From Allomuricauda sp. (GTDB lineage: Bacteria; Bacteroidota; Bacteroidia; Flavobacteriales; Flavobacteriaceae), in contig JACESV010000005.1 in NCBI GenBank assembly GCA_013911645.1, positions 57,677-121,676 of the forward strand: DNA of 64,000 bases. Direction: 5' to 3'. How positions within the stretch are numbered: position 1 is the stretch's first letter; the number at the start of each line of letters is the position of its first letter. Shown here piece by piece: positions 7,117-12,197 of the stretch. The notes under the pieces are model-generated. The model was not told the DNA's origin and searched no databases. It saw nothing but the letters and a program-made list of their open reading frames with translations. The translations under genes and the position numbers were made by a program.

Positions 7117-7372
7117 CGAAGACCTACACAAAAGATTTAACGATGCCGTTGACTTTGTCAACGACTACACCGATCCGTTGCCCGCGGATCTTCTGCTAAA
7201 ACTCTATGCCTATTTCAAGATAGCGAACAAAAACTTTGACAATCCTGGCAGTAGAACCCCATTGATCAACGCTTTTAAGGCAAACGCATTGTTCCAAGCC
7301 AAAAGAATTAGTGTGGAGGAGGCCATGGAAAAATATGTGGAATTGGTGGAGAAAGAGCTAAAAACACTCTAA
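7109..7372 (+). CDS. acyl-CoA-binding protein (ACBP)
   Basis: 87 aa with LLKLYAYFKIA and AFKANA...EEAMEKYVELV, typical of the ACBP fold. Confidence 0.85.
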   Translation: MINEDLHKRFNDAVDFVNDYTDPLPADLLLKLYAYFKIANKNFDNPGSRTPLINAFKANALFQAKRISVEEAMEKYVELVEKELKTL

Positions 7373-8643
7373 GAAGCCAAATCTGTAGCAATAAACGACT
7401 TCTCAAAGTAGGTAAAGTAGATACCTCCAAAAATGGTGATCAAAAAATAAAAAGCTACAAGATAACTTCCCATGGAAAAGTACGCATTGATTCCGAACCA
7501 GTCCTCAGTAAAATAAATCAACACCAATCCCCCTACCCCTCTGATCACTTCAATCCAAACGGCATAATTTTTACCGTCCATTAAGGTGGTGTAGCCATAG
7601 ATACCCACAAAAATAAAAGCACCGAACAACAAGAGACCATCAAAACCAATATCCGAATAGTTGTAGAACATAAAAAGCATTAAAATAGTGGTAATGGCCA
7701 GTTGAAAAAGTGAATATCCCTTGAGCCGAGCGGATGCTTCGGGTCGATATTTTCTGAAATTGTACACATTCTGGATAATGGCAACAGGATATTTATCCTC
7801 TACATCCTTAGGCCGCCAGCCTGTGGGCATAAACCAAATGCGAAATTTATCCCAATAGTTTTTGGTTCGCCATGCATCCTGCATCAACCGCCATAAATGT
7901 TGAAAATTGATGATAATGGGATTCCAAGTGTTTGCCGGTTTCAATACCCCGTATTGCGGGGGCACTTCATCCAATTCCTCTTGAAAAGTCCCGAACATTC
8001 TGTCCCAAACACAAAAAATCTGTCCGAGGTTTTTATCAATATACTCTTTATTGATGGCATGGTGCACCCGGTGTTGTGAGGGAGTAACGATCACATATTC
8101 CAAAAAACCCATTTTTCCGATATGCTGGGTGTGGTACCAAAATTGGGCAAAAAGATGGATGGGAGCCAAAATGGCAATCACTTGGTCCGGAACACCCAAG
8201 AGGGCAGCAGGAATCAATAAAAGTGCATAATAGCCCAACAAATTGGAAATAGGTTGACGAAGCGCACAGGCCAAATTAAACTCCTCACTGCTATGATGAA
8301 TTACATGCTGGTTCCAAAAAAAGTTAATGTGATGGCTCAACCTATGGTTCCAATAGCCTGCAAAATCCAACGCAATAAAAGCCACCACCCAAACCAACCA
8401 GGTCGCTTTGATTTCCACCAAAGCCAAATGTTCCAATAAAAAGGGATAACTCACCAGAATAATTACAAGCCCCAAAGAATCTTTAACCACATTGGTCAAA
8501 CCCGAGCTAAGGCTGCTCACGGTATCCATTAGATTATGTTTCTGGTCTTTTACAAATCGACCATAAAGTATTTCAAAAAGCACCAGGCCTATAAAAAACG
8601 GTGTGGCATATAACAATGCCGTTGCATACGATTCCATTTCCAA
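7369..8643 (-). CDS. alkylglycerol monooxygenase-like membrane di-iron hydroxylase (sterol desaturase family)
   Basis: His boxes YWNHRLSHH, HVIHHSSEEFNL and HRVHHA, plus IDKNLG...WDRMFGTF; C-terminal TM extension. Confidence 0.8.
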   Translation of the reverse strand: MEMESYATALLYATPFFIGLVLFEILYGRFVKDQKHNLMDTVSSLSSGLTNVVKDSLGLVIILVSYPFLLEHLALVEIKATWLVWVVAFIALDFAGYWNHRLSHHINFFWNQHVIHHSSEEFNLACALRQPISNLLGYYALLLIPAALLGVPDQVIAILAPIHLFAQFWYHTQHIGKMGFLEYVIVTPSQHRVHHAINKEYIDKNLGQIFCVWDRMFGTFQEELDEVPPQYGVLKPANTWNPIIINFQHLWRLMQDAWRTKNYWDKFRIWFMPTGWRPKDVEDKYPVAIIQNVYNFRKYRPEASARLKGYSLFQLAITTILMLFMFYNYSDIGFDGLLLFGAFIFVGIYGYTTLMDGKNYAVWIEVIRGVGGLVLIYFTEDWFGINAYFSMGSYLVAFYFLITIFGGIYFTYFEKSFIATDLAS

Positions 8644-8689: not shown

Positions 8690-9529
8690 TTACTCTAAAT
8701 TTTTAAATAATTGAATATCGTTGGCATCCGTTAAATCTGGAATGTGTTCGGAGCGGGGTATACAAAGTACGCTCTGCGGTTCTTCACTTACCAAAACGGC
8801 CACCGCTTTGGGCAATTCCTTTTCATCCCGAACAGGATCAATGGGACATTTTTTTAAATAGGGATATATTTCCGCTCCAGAAAAACTAAAAATGTTCATG
8901 CTTACCCGAAGTTCGCCTGAAGCATCTTTATATTTGGGTACATCCGCTACATTCGGTTTTTCGATAATTTCCTTCAAAAATCCATCAGAAGAAATGTCCA
9001 TTACGGCAAATTTGGCAATGCGCTCTTCGGTATAATCAAAACCTGAGCTGCCGTAACTGATCAAGGCGTGTGGTGCTGTCCGCTCCGCCCTCAAATCCAT
9101 CAAAGCGCCAACAGAGTAAAGGTTATCCCCATTACAAACGGTGAAGGTGGTCTGTTTCAAATCTGGGTGTTGGTCCAAACATTGTTGAAGGGCGTCTGCG
9201 GTACCCAATGGTTTTTTTCTTCCCTCGGGCACACTTTGCACTGCCAAAAACACTTCCAACCCGTCAGGAAGATCCTTATTATCAATCAAACTTTGAAATG
9301 CTTGGTTCCCGGGACTAGTAATCAAATACAGTTTGGCGTAACCTGCTTCCACTGCATTCTGTACCAAGTAGTACAAGAAGGGCCTTCCATTTTTCCCTAC
9401 GGGAATCAAACTTTTATGGGGGATATTGTCCATGATCCCTTTTTGACACTCCTTAGTTTTTAAACTCCGCTTCATTCGGGAAGACGCCCCTCCCACCATA
9501 ATGATCAAACTCGTATTCTCCATTTGCAT
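8690..9529 (-). CDS. sugar-1-phosphate nucleotidyltransferase (NTP_transferase family)
   Basis: IIMVGGASSRMK, KSLIPV, PLGTADA and VCNGDNLY motifs; start overlaps the kinase stop. Confidence 0.8.
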   Translation of the reverse strand: MQMENTSLIIMVGGASSRMKRSLKTKECQKGIMDNIPHKSLIPVGKNGRPFLYYLVQNAVEAGYAKLYLITSPGNQAFQSLIDNKDLPDGLEVFLAVQSVPEGRKKPLGTADALQQCLDQHPDLKQTTFTVCNGDNLYSVGALMDLRAERTAPHALISYGSSGFDYTEERIAKFAVMDISSDGFLKEIIEKPNVADVPKYKDASGELRVSMNIFSFSGAEIYPYLKKCPIDPVRDEKELPKAVAVLVSEEPQSVLCIPRSEHIPDLTDANDIQLFKNLE

Positions 9530-10581
9530 TAACTTGTTAATTCTACAGCATACACCGCCTTGGCGCCTTTGTCCAAAAACGCCTGTTTTACCTGTTCCTC
9601 GACAGCATCAGTTACCATGGCCACCATACATCCTCCACCTCCAGAACCGATTATTTTTGTTCCCAATGCACCCATCTCACGAGCAGCATCCATCATCTCA
9701 ATCATTTCCGATGGTGTATTCTTGATTTGATTTTGAAGAATGGTTTGGTGCCGGTTCATTAAATCTCCCAGAACCTGAATATTAGGGGTCGGCTTTAACA
9801 ATTCCTTTTTTGCTTCCAAAGTGATGTGATAGTTGTAAATCGTGGAATACCAATACCCCTGAAGTTCCTCTGGCACCAAGTCGATGTATTTTTCATAATC
9901 ACCCAAATATGATTCTTCCAAAACAAATTCAGGATGCACCTTTTTAACGGCGTCCACCGCATTTTGTGCGTACACCCGGGCATTTTTGAGCACTTCCAGG
10001 GTCTTTTTGGGCACGCCCGATTCAGCAACCAACAGTTTGCCCAAATCAGCATTCAAACGTGTGCTTTCCCCACTTTGGGTGTCGATATAAATAAGTCCTT
10101 TTTGAGCGATGGTGTACTGATCCATTAAACCTCCGGGTTGGTCAAAGAACAGCACTTCGGCCTCATAGGCCCATCTCCCTATTTGATAATCGCTGATTTC
10201 TTCCGATTTCCCCTGTGTTGCCACCAAAAAACGAATCCAGGCCACCACCAAGGCTGAAGAACTGGAGAGCCCTGCATTCACGGGAATGTTTCCTGAAATT
10301 TCGATGTCATAACCTTGGTCAAGTTGGAAACCTTGCTCTTTTAAAATTGCCATTACCGACCTGAAGTAATCATCGGCTTGTACTTGTTTCAAATCATCAT
10401 CCAAAGAAATGGACAATTCGTCCTTTAAATCCAACAACTTCAAAAGGTATTTCCTATCAGAATTCGGAATCGCCTTTAAATTGATGAAGCGGTCAATGGT
10501 TCCTGCTATTACCGGCAGTCCCAAATAATCTTGGTGGTCCCCGTAAAAACAGATTCGGGCCGGGACTTTTATTTCGATCAT
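9529..10581 (-). CDS. GHMP-family sugar kinase (galactokinase-like)
   Basis: PARICFYGDHQDY, IPVNAGLSSSSAL and KIIGSGGGGC motifs. Confidence 0.85.
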   Translation of the reverse strand: MIEIKVPARICFYGDHQDYLGLPVIAGTIDRFINLKAIPNSDRKYLLKLLDLKDELSISLDDDLKQVQADDYFRSVMAILKEQGFQLDQGYDIEISGNIPVNAGLSSSSALVVAWIRFLVATQGKSEEISDYQIGRWAYEAEVLFFDQPGGLMDQYTIAQKGLIYIDTQSGESTRLNADLGKLLVAESGVPKKTLEVLKNARVYAQNAVDAVKKVHPEFVLEESYLGDYEKYIDLVPEELQGYWYSTIYNYHITLEAKKELLKPTPNIQVLGDLMNRHQTILQNQIKNTPSEMIEMMDAAREMGALGTKIIGSGGGGCMVAMVTDAVEEQVKQAFLDKGAKAVYAVELTS

Positions 10582-10594
10582 TAATCTTTACTGC

Positions 10595-11983
10595 TTAACT
10601 TATTATTTCCAGTGGTGCTGTTTCTTTCCAATTGCCTCTTGTAAAGTCGGGAAAAGGCTGTGGTGCACCACCACTTGCTACGGAGCGTTCACTTAATGGC
10701 GCAACTGCGCTCCACAAACATCCTTCGTATACATTTTGGTCCAACGGAAGTCCTTTTTGCAGGCATTCCACGATTCGATACACCATAATACCATCCATCC
10801 CTCCATGCCCACTGCCCTTGGCAGCTTCGTTCAATCGTTTGTAGAGTGGATGATCGTATTTTTCGTATAATTTTTCCAATTGTTCCCCTTGTACCCAAGA
10901 ATGGTGGTCTTCCGTGAGTCCTTCCACTCCGCCTTCAAGAGCCACCCGGGTTGGAAATCCTGCCAACGCACCTTTGGTTCCCTGCACCAGATTTAATCGG
11001 GAATAGGGTCTTGGGCTGGTCTCGTCCCATTGCACCATAATGGTTTTTCCAAAGTGGGTTTTGATAATGGATGTGTTCAAATCTCCTCCTTTAAAATCGA
11101 GTTTGTTCCATTTATGATCGGCTGGATAATTTTTTTCTGCATACAGCTCGCGTCCTCTTGCGGGCGTAGAGAAAGAAACCAAACTGCCAAAGGTATCTTC
11201 TTGTCTCGCCAAGCTCATATACTGGGCAACAGGGCCCAAACCGTGGGTCGGGTACAAGTTTCCGTTCCGTTTGGCATAGTGGGGCGTCCTCCAAGAACCC
11301 GTGCCCCGCTCCTGCTCTTCCATCTGCCAGCGCAGTTCGTGAATGTAGGCTGCTTCGCCGTGCAAAATTTCACCAACCACACCTTGCCTGCACATATTGA
11401 GGAACATCAGCTCATCACGACTGTAATTTACGTTTTCCAGCATCATGCAATGCTTTTGGGTTCGTTCGCTGGCATCCACAATATCCCACATATCTTGGAT
11501 GGTGGTAGCGATTGGCACCTCAACAAAGGCGTGTGCCCCGTTTTCCATGGCACCGATGGCCATAGGTGCGTGATTTACCCAGTTCGTGGCAATGAACACC
11601 ACATTGGGCTTTACCTCTTTGAGCATGGTACGCCACTTGTCCTCTTCGCCCCAGTATTGGGCTATATTTTCATGTCGGCCAGGTCCGCCGGCCTCTTTTA
11701 CCCATTGGGTCTTTTCTTTCACTAAATCCTCGTATAAATCACAGATGGCGACGACTTCGGTTCCTTCCAATGCAGCAAAAAACTTGGCATGGGTTCCTCC
11801 CCTGGCTCCTACCCCGATAAATGCAGCGCGCACTTTTTCCAATTTAGGGGCTACAAATCCACCCATGTACGTTGATGAAAGCGGTCTTTCTGAATTGGCT
11901 TTTAAATACGTTGGGGCTATGGAAATTGCTGCCGCGGTCAATGAAGTTTTTTGGATAAAACTTCTTCTATTGAGGTTTTTCAT
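10595..11983 (-). CDS. GH109 NAD+-dependent alpha-N-acetylgalactosaminidase-like protein (Gfo/Idh/MocA fold), Tat/lipoprotein-type signal
   Basis: RRSFIQK signal, Rossmann FIGVGARG, FVEVP, MMLENVNY, YPTHGLGP and GHGGMD motifs. Confidence 0.88.
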   Translation of the reverse strand: MKNLNRRSFIQKTSLTAAAISIAPTYLKANSERPLSSTYMGGFVAPKLEKVRAAFIGVGARGGTHAKFFAALEGTEVVAICDLYEDLVKEKTQWVKEAGGPGRHENIAQYWGEEDKWRTMLKEVKPNVVFIATNWVNHAPMAIGAMENGAHAFVEVPIATTIQDMWDIVDASERTQKHCMMLENVNYSRDELMFLNMCRQGVVGEILHGEAAYIHELRWQMEEQERGTGSWRTPHYAKRNGNLYPTHGLGPVAQYMSLARQEDTFGSLVSFSTPARGRELYAEKNYPADHKWNKLDFKGGDLNTSIIKTHFGKTIMVQWDETSPRPYSRLNLVQGTKGALAGFPTRVALEGGVEGLTEDHHSWVQGEQLEKLYEKYDHPLYKRLNEAAKGSGHGGMDGIMVYRIVECLQKGLPLDQNVYEGCLWSAVAPLSERSVASGGAPQPFPDFTRGNWKETAPLEIIS

Positions 11984-12063
11984 TGGTAATTGTATTGTTG
12001 GTTCTAATATTTTCCAAAGTATGAAAAATAATGAGAAAAGAGGAACTCTAAAAGCTTGTTATC

Positions 12064-12136
12064 TGTCAGTTCGAACGCAGTCGAAAACCTAAAACATATT
12101 GATAATCAATGGATTTAGACTGCGCTCAACCTGACA
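12064..12136. repeat. REP/MITE-like palindromic element with TGTCAG...CTGACA termini
   Basis: 26-bp arms TGTCAGTTCGAACGCAGTCGAAAACC (12064-12089) and GGATTTAGACTGCGCTCAACCTGACA (12111-12136), 5 mismatches. Confidence 0.8.
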
Positions 12137-12197
12137 AATTTAAACTTTTGTTACGTTTTAGACCTTTTTCAAAATCAAGCCCATTTATAACCAAAGG

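Follow-up and report, generated by a model that had tools for sequence, protein, structure and literature searches.

What happens to N-acetylgalactosamine (GalNAc) after a glycosidase has cut it from a glycan is the question raised by three adjacent genes in a 64,000-nucleotide stretch of Allomuricauda sp. contig JACESV010000005.1 (hereafter, the window). These genes encode a glycoside hydrolase of family GH109, a GHMP kinase and a predicted nucleotidyltransferase of Pfam family NTP_transferase, and we consider it reasonably probable that they constitute an operon that first frees and then activates GalNAc. The features on which this proposal is built are as follows.

10595–11983, minus strand: GH109 NAD-dependent N-acetylgalactosaminidase, 462 residues, first gene of the operon (from Pfam and PDB matches)
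11894–11983, minus strand: putative twin-arginine (Tat) export signal of GH109, about residues 1–30, read from MKNLNRRSFIQKTSLTAAAISIAPTYLKAN
9529–10581, minus strand: GHMP kinase with a galactokinase fold, a member of the [DE]HQDY family, 350 residues, proposed to be an N-acetylhexosamine (HexNAc)/GalNAc 1-kinase (from Pfam, AlphaFold 2 and Foldseek)
10525–10563, minus strand: kinase motif I, PARICFYGDHQDY, residues 7–19, the family signature (from the kinase sequence)
8690–9529, minus strand: predicted sugar-1-phosphate nucleotidylyltransferase, 279 residues, with an unusual GGASSRMK loop (from Pfam, AlphaFold 2 and Foldseek)

The three genes are co-directional in the order GH109, kinase, transferase. 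The open reading frame (ORF) coordinates leave a gap of 13 bp between GH109 and the kinase, and at the second junction the kinase stop and the transferase start share 1 bp. The first-pass annotation of this DNA had described the same tight coupling, and we recovered identical coordinates. It had also pointed to an apparently exported GH109, to the absence of a transporter from the cluster, and to a kinase from an uncharacterised subfamily carrying GDHQDY where galactokinases carry GEH(T/I)DY. Each of these points held on closer analysis, export remaining a prediction.

The identity of the first gene is the clearest of the three. Its product matched the Pfam models Glyco_hydro_109_C (PF21252, 2.8e-56) and GFO_IDH_MocA (PF01408, 1.6e-12), both above their gathering cut-offs, and aligned over 432 residues with PDB entry 6T2B at 57% identity (8.6e-166). 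The 6T2B chain, titled ‘Glycosyl hydrolase family 109 protein 2’ by its depositors, comes from Akkermansia muciniphila, a verrucomicrobium. NagA (2IXA), the founding α-N-acetylgalactosaminidase of GH109, was matched at 36% identity (4e-74). The positions of NagA reported as sugar-binding or catalytic (E149, Y179, R213, Y225, H228, Y307 and the GGHGG-loop His; Liu 2007, Teze 2020) are all identical in the window protein in HMMER alignments to 2IXA and 6T2B. The motifs aligned to NagA are LENV, aaYIH, WRT, LYPTHG, RPY and GSGHGGMD. By eye, the N terminus MKNLNRRSFIQKTSLTAAAISIAP is a twin-arginine signal (the same N terminus is given as MKNLNRRSFIQK); this was read directly from the sequence. 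Good support is thus available for the prediction that gene 1 encodes an enzyme that releases GalNAc in the periplasm. Across the 80 Flavobacteriaceae loci described below (L001–L080), GH109 is also the best conserved of the three proteins (65–97% identical, compared with 56–100% for the kinase and 48–97% for the transferase), and its 57% identity to 6T2B crosses phyla. This cross-phylum similarity may stem from horizontal transfer or from strong constraint.

The kinase, which begins MIEIKVPARICFYGDHQDYLGLPVIA, matched the Pfam models GHMP_kinases_N (3.5e-14) and GHMP_kinases_C (1.1e-11) but did not reach the cut-off of GalKase_gal_bdg (16 bits versus 23.1). None of the NCBIfam kinase models reached its cut-off either, galactokinase coming highest (109 bits versus 385), and the scores of the protein against galactokinase models, TIGR00131 and PRK05322 included, ranged from 85 to 109 bits where the cut-offs range from 226 to 499. 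The AlphaFold 2 model (predicted local distance difference test score, pLDDT, of 94) was used for Foldseek comparisons, in which the top match was the galactokinase of Pyrococcus furiosus (1S4E; template modeling [TM] score 0.87, 23% identity), followed by human GALK1 and the Lactococcus lactis GalK. By sequence, human GALK2 (2A2C) was matched at 1.3e-14, no better than GalK.

Alignment to 1S4E placed PARICFYGDHQDY opposite PGRVNLIGEHTDY and PGGLMDQY opposite PCGILDQF, so that R9, D18 and D154 of the kinase correspond to the catalytic Arg, the sugar-binding Asp and the catalytic Asp of galactokinase. Therefore, the Arg and the two Asp residues of anomeric phosphorylation by galactokinase are kept. 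GHMP motif II (PVNAGLSSSSA) and motif III (GSGGGGC) also align and, like R9 and D154, are invariant in 40 orthologues. Thus, the protein carries the elements of a galactokinase-like anomeric GHMP kinase, namely the Arg that precedes motif I, the GGxMDQ Asp, and motifs II and III. However, the sugar-binding signature departs from that of 1S4E at two positions, Glu to Asp and Thr to Gln, and motif I with the resulting GDHQDY, which takes the place of the galactokinase signature GEH[TI]DY, is itself invariant in the 40 orthologues. Archaeal and bacterial GalK proteins (1S4E and the L. lactis enzyme 1PIE) are therefore like the window kinase in fold, catalytic Arg, motif I Asp and GGxMDQ Asp, but differ from it in sharing only 22–23% identity, in their motif I, in the model cut-offs that it does not reach, and in belonging outside its long-branched separate family.

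The extent of that family was established with HMMER searches of 1.84 billion cluster representatives, which returned 157 clusters (50%-identity level) at E<1e-30 and 3765 proteins at E≤0.001. Among 151 sequences, comprising the query and 150 cluster representatives, the pattern P[GA]R[IV]CLFG[DE]HQDY was present in 124, with DHQDY in 47 and EHQDY in 77. In a tree, a long branch sets the family off from the P. furiosus GalK, and nearly all DHQDY sequences fall in one clade. The names that source annotations give to members are unspecific or conflict with one another (‘GHMP kinase’, ‘galactokinase’, ‘mevalonate kinase’). These comparisons of sequences and models support the assignment of the protein as a putative galactokinase-fold, anomeric-type kinase of a large uncharacterised family.

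Two other kinase types were considered and set aside. Mevalonate kinase (TIGR00549) scored 106.8 bits versus a cut-off of 163, and its structures match less of the model (TM 0.72–0.75). The APH fold (PF01636) of NahK and BT4240 is not represented, since the protein shows GHMP domains only, and any analogy to those enzymes is at most functional. Two fusions were also observed in the family. In P0166 (loci L087 and L088), which has a GH3 gene next to it, a family kinase is joined to a NagB-like glucosamine-6-phosphate isomerase domain; in P0181 (locus L093), whose context is uninformative, the domain joined to the kinase is a Macro (ADP-ribose-binding) domain.

The third protein matched NTP_transferase (PF00483) at 1.4e-10, and its AlphaFold 2 model (pLDDT 89.7) resembled GalU, RmlA, GlmU, ADP-glucose pyrophosphorylase (AGPase) and ST0452 about equally (TM ∼0.7, E ∼1e-14). 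It has the features expected of PF00483: a Gly-rich loop with an Arg, a conserved Lys, a GDN Mg site, and an EKP sugar-phosphate motif. Residues G13, G14, S16, S17, R18 and K20, HK39, and the motifs GTADA, NGDN, EKP and EKEL are invariant in 37 orthologues. Between the GGASSRMK loop and the conserved Lys lies an insert of ∼20 residues that is modelled poorly. On the basis of its modelled fold and motifs, the protein has what is expected of an active sugar-1-phosphate nucleotidylyltransferase.

Its nucleotide is a different matter. The transferase profile matched RmlA, YngB, GalU and GlmU structures at ∼1e-4 and AGPases far better (see below), and its 27 PDB matches with E≤0.01 included no MurU structure. 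The best NCBIfam match was TIGR03992, Arch_glmU (1.6e-9). Assignment as GlmU or GlgC was rejected, as the protein is a single domain with no C-terminal left-handed β-helix and scored 28.6 bits versus a cut-off of 424.9 for glgC and 37 versus 292 for Arch_glmU. Because the profile is AGPase-like, the β-helix is missing and the fold matches are equal, the nucleotide cannot be called from sequence, and UDP is not secured.

The first-pass annotation had proposed a neighbourhood analysis of GDHQDY kinases as a check. We used two samples: 80 loci from Flavobacteriaceae genomes, one of which (L001) carries a kinase 100% identical to that of the window, and 80 metagenome loci retrieved by means of a profile built on distant DHQDY kinases, which are 36–45% identical to the query. 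In the genome loci the kinase was accompanied by the transferase in 78 of 80 and by GH109 in 74–76 of 80, while every other neighbour occurred in 61 or fewer. The trio is kept even where both flanks have been replaced (L052, L060, L063, L079 and L082). Kinase and transferase are −4 to +8 bp apart in nearly every locus, and the spacing of GH109 and kinase is mostly 0–39 bp. In the metagenome loci, the transferase lies directly downstream of the kinase in 64 of 80 and a GH109-like gene (24–47% identical) lies directly upstream in 49 of 80. Furthermore, P0273 is a single protein of 631 residues in which the kinase is fused to a transferase with GASSRMK, CNGDN and VSMNIF motifs. Conservation of the linkage was thus borne out, and this gene-order evidence supports treating the trio as one conserved functional unit. 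The genes inserted beside the trio in some relatives (dienelactone-hydrolase-like, metallo-β-lactamase-like, two-component systems, sigma factor) were rejected as further members on inspection of their sequences, as they look unrelated and are not recurrent.

The kinase and transferase families are widespread in Bacteroidota. Source annotations of relatives also name Caldithrix and Marinimicrobia, and one locus, L090 (3179–4123 and 7001–8841), has a context that looks archaeal, as judged from its neighbouring genes alone. There, the family kinase overlaps a 245-residue transferase of a different subtype, and the neighbours include a CTP-dependent riboflavin kinase, a CDP-alcohol phosphatidyltransferase, a sulfatase and a second, shorter GHMP kinase.

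Which sugar the kinase might use can be approached through the partners of its relatives. Enzymes of GH109 release GalNAc, and those of GH20 release N-acetylglucosamine (GlcNAc) or GalNAc. Among the metagenome loci, a GH20 gene lies upstream of the kinase in 5, a divergent LacI regulator is present in 12, and an SSF gene follows the transferase in 19; GH20 also lies beside the fusion protein P0273, and an SSF symporter follows the transferase in L085/L086. The operon of Flavobacterium sp. 11 carries, in order, LacI, the kinase (GDHQDY, 40% identical), the transferase (47% identical), MFS and NagB/PIG-L, followed by GH20, GH2, GH29 and GH95. This set of neighbours (GH109, GH20, NagB/PIG-L and SSF/MFS) fits an N-acetylhexosamine as the likely substrate, and GalNAc especially for the GH109-linked clade. 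Context and motifs together make an anomeric kinase and a pyrophosphorylase that would act on HexNAc a well-supported prediction; we further infer GalNAc specificity, the C1 position, UDP, and salvage as opposed to catabolism. A catabolic role may also be considered, as in relatives the kinase/transferase pair belongs to operons that LacI regulates and that include a transporter and NagB/PIG-L.

A recurrent arrangement, found for example in L132, L134, L142, L145, L147, L155, L159, L168 and L169, consists of GH109, kinase, transferase, SSF, a Met-zincin (DUF4953/DUF5117) protease and a β-eliminating lyase of the threonine-aldolase type. This gene order suggests that its bearers may use GalNAc-O-Ser/Thr glycopeptides.

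The mechanism that we propose would run as follows. In the periplasm, the Tat-exported, NAD-dependent GH109 would clip terminal GalNAc residues off glycans or glycopeptides, a step for which homology gives strong support. The free sugar would then enter the cell through a transporter presumably encoded elsewhere, by analogy with the SSF or MFS protein of relatives. Once inside, it would be phosphorylated by the GHMP kinase, probably on the anomeric C1 hydroxyl, to give a HexNAc-1-phosphate. The translationally coupled PF00483 transferase would combine this product with a nucleoside triphosphate, UTP being most likely by analogy, to yield a nucleoside diphosphate (NDP)-HexNAc. Finally, the product would join the UDP-HexNAc pool and could be spent on glycan synthesis or, after epimerisation, on a Leloir-like breakdown.

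The first-pass annotation had framed this scheme as a eukaryote-like route, distinct from the classical bacterial Aga route through the 6-phosphate. In humans, UDP-GalNAc is reached through GALK2 and AGX1/UAP1, and the window locus is indeed like that pathway in pairing a GHMP anomeric kinase with a pyrophosphorylase. However, identity to GALK2 is ∼20%, the window kinase has 350 residues where the 2A2C chain has 478, archaeal or bacterial galactokinases are at least as close to it as GALK2, of which it does not appear to be an orthologue, and AGX1 is a UDPGP protein (PF01704) whereas the transferase here belongs to PF00483. The part of the earlier framing that concerns the GHMP fold, as in GALK2, stands, but its emphasis was too strong, and the implied absence of such a route from bacteria is contradicted by NahK and BT4240, which are bacterial GalNAc-1-kinases of the APH fold (PMC11992087). 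Bifidobacterium NahK makes both GalNAc- and GlcNAc-1-phosphate (PMC11992087). BT4240 lies in operon 1 of the Bacteroides thetaiotaomicron polysaccharide utilization locus (PUL) BT4240-50, where it encodes a GalNAc-1-kinase, next to BT4241 (GH2), BT4242 (MFS) and BT4243 (GH109) (PMC11992087). With the APH fold and 39% identity to NahK, it adds phosphate to O1 of GlcNAc and shows a ∼275-fold preference for GalNAc; the fate of GalNAc-1-phosphate in B. thetaiotaomicron was left open (PMC11992087). The two loci are alike in that a periplasmic GH109 and a cytoplasmic kinase for the released sugar share one operon in a member of the Bacteroidota. They differ in that the BT4240 locus has an APH/NahK kinase (PF01636), a transporter and a GH2 enzyme but no nucleotidyltransferase, whereas the window locus has a GHMP kinase, a translationally coupled transferase and no linked transporter.

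Other bacterial systems also proceed from phosphorylation of an N-acetyl amino sugar at C1 to a UDP-sugar, including Bifidobacterium NahK with GalT/GalE (in the use of lacto-N-biose and galacto-N-biose) and AmgK-MurU of Pseudomonas and Tannerella. MurU resembles the window transferase in being a PF00483 protein partnered with an anomeric kinase. However, NahK and AmgK are APH-fold kinases, and the sugar that they handle is N-acetylmuramic acid or GlcNAc from cell-wall recycling. The closest match of the transferase profile is the GlgC catalytic domain, and the archaeal ST0452-type enzyme is among the fold matches; yet here GGASSRMK replaces GGxGTRL, the insert of ∼20 residues is present and the left-handed β-helix is not. 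Our search of the literature turned up neither a paper that links a GHMP kinase to GH109 nor one on the transferase family. Both the kinase and the transferase come from large families for which we found no curated name or published characterisation. What is new at this locus is the GHMP-fold kinase family with its dedicated transferase; the logic is the same as that known from NahK and BT4240.

Several observations weigh against the proposal that the trio frees and activates GalNAc. The substrate assignments of all members are made by guilt by association, and the kinase is only ∼20–23% identical to any characterised galactokinase or to GALK2, with GALK2 ranking just 48th by fold (TM 0.80). 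The transferase profile is nearest to AGPases (6e-13) and not to GlmU, GalU or MurU. In the window, the trio sits among housekeeping genes (valS, ftsH, a LUD-domain protein gene, cdsA, psd, ACBP and murB), with no transporter, regulator or SusC/D gene beside it. The linkage also has exceptions. The kinase occurs without GH109 in Flagellimonas sediminis (L036) and in metagenome-assembled genomes of Croceivirga (L059) and Allomuricauda (L080), where it comes right after valS or after one small ORF. Since L036 and L059 retain the transferase (L080 shows only its start, at a contig end), the kinase/transferase pair is retained there without the glycosidase. Finally, the family includes members with no partner at all, the kinase being alone in L056 and L089.

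A first rival explanation is that the same mechanism serves another sugar, be it galactose (as in a GalK/USP-type pathway), galactosamine or GlcNAc alone, with the link to GH109 reflecting co-release from shared glycans. The best curated models and structures are, after all, those of galactokinases, GH2 and GH20 genes occur near relatives, and GH20 and GH3 fit GlcNAc as well as GalNAc. We regard this explanation as possible but unlikely, given that the kinase scores far below galactokinase cut-offs (100–109 bits versus 226–499), that the galactose signature is altered at two positions that are invariant in the family, and that a long branch separates the family from P. furiosus GalK. Moreover, the GalNAc-releasing GH109 is by far the commonest partner, and NagB-type fusions and neighbours point to amino sugars. 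A second is that the nucleotide differs: for some dedicated purpose, either catabolism involving a PIG-L deacetylase or the supply of a donor for a specific glycan, the pair could make not UDP-HexNAc but another nucleotide sugar, such as one linked to ADP. By fold, however, the protein is as similar to UDP- as to dTDP- and ADP-forming enzymes, it lacks a C-terminal β-helix, and it has 279 residues where the matched AGPase chains have 413–477. No ADP-HexNAc is known. Set against this are the strength of the AGPase match relative to RmlA, GalU and GlmU, the shared GTADA and GDxLY motifs, the label of glucose-1-phosphate adenylyltransferase given to relatives by the Joint Genome Institute, and the NagB/PIG-L gene that follows the pair in Flavobacterium. 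The Macro domain fused to one family kinase has been counted on the same side, but that kinase belongs to a distant clade (34% identity) and its context is uninformative. On balance, an ADP-linked or other such product seems improbable.

The housekeeping surroundings bear on two further explanations. In Flagellimonas and its relatives the operon lies amid valS, ftsH, cdsA, psd and murB with no PUL, regulator or transporter, as might be expected if the trio recycled GalNAc from the envelope glycans of the cell itself, in the manner of AmgK-MurU, rather than serving nutrient uptake. This is made quite improbable by other lineages, in which the pair lies in LacI/GntR operons with transporters, SusC and exo-glycosidases that are typical of nutrient loci; in any case, such recycling would use the same biochemistry and would differ in physiological role, not in mechanism. 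Adjacency could also be mere inherited synteny with no shared function, because the wider region is syntenic across Flavobacteriaceae and housekeeping neighbours are found in 55–61 of the 80 genome loci. We consider this very improbable. The trio outlives the replacement of both flanks and recurs in 80 unrelated metagenome contexts, its genes have start/stop overlaps, and its kinase and transferase occur as a fusion. Release of GalNAc followed by its activation is the reading that we favour.

The surroundings of the operon were also examined. On the same strand, valS lies 214 bp upstream of GH109, and a gene for a membrane protein of the fatty-acid-hydroxylase family lies 46 bp downstream of the transferase. 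The upstream interval is one further feature of the locus.

11984–12197, minus strand: 214-bp spacer between valS and GH109, the presumed promoter region of the operon

A promoter and terminator scan, which used sigma-70-like promoter patterns, gave no more matches than shuffled sequence, and the sigma-70-like matches within the spacer are weak. A long imperfect inverted repeat with the ends TGTCA...TGACA is visible in the spacer at 12064–12136. The 64-kb window holds no homologue of the transporters that adjoin the genes of relatives, and none is present in the cluster, where the first-pass annotation had likewise noted none; SSF or MFS genes do follow the transferase in relatives, as described above. 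Public sequencing runs containing the locus included no RNA runs, and four runs of unclear kind gave DNA-like contigs. The strain in those four runs differs from the window by a few letters per hundred.

The downstream gene (7369–8643, minus strand) encodes a fatty-acid-hydroxylase/AGMO-like di-iron membrane protein of 424 residues. Its match to PF04116 (4e-28) covers residues 85–219 only, and a long, hydrophobic-looking C-terminal part is unmatched. In the metagenome-like runs X4–X6, a closely related strain has 94 different letters in place of 7719–7814 within this gene. We considered the gene as a fourth operon member and rejected it, as it travels with the psd/cdsA block. It adjoins the transferase in most Flagellimonas loci, but other genes intervene in L040, L042, L054 and L075, and it is absent from more distant loci that bear the trio. 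Membership of the sugar operon is thus improbable.

Mucin-type O-glycans, chondroitin, and many marine and bacterial glycans have GalNAc as a core sugar, and its metabolism in Bacteroidota once it has been released is understood only in part: the 2025 study of B. thetaiotaomicron stops at the GalNAc-1-kinase. The locus described here provides a candidate for the step that follows GalNAc-1-phosphate and, for the first step, would add a second kinase fold unrelated to the one already known. Taken much further, the [DE]HQDY kinase and the GGASSRMK transferase might be the main and hitherto unrecognised entry of HexNAc/GalNAc in marine and soil Bacteroidota and some other phyla, Leloir-like via NDP-HexNAc, having replaced kinases of the NahK/BT4240 type by non-orthologous displacement. 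We hold this extension to be rather unlikely, a judgement that applies to it jointly with its boldest form, in which the nucleotide would be ADP and the product a nucleotide sugar not yet described. Both families have many members and no functional annotation. If the proposed release and activation of GalNAc is correct, it would add new enzymes to those available for making nucleotide HexNAc in one pot, would correct such generic labels as ‘galactokinase’, ‘mevalonate kinase’ and ‘glucose-1-phosphate adenylyltransferase’, and would improve the prediction of pathways in marine polysaccharide degraders.

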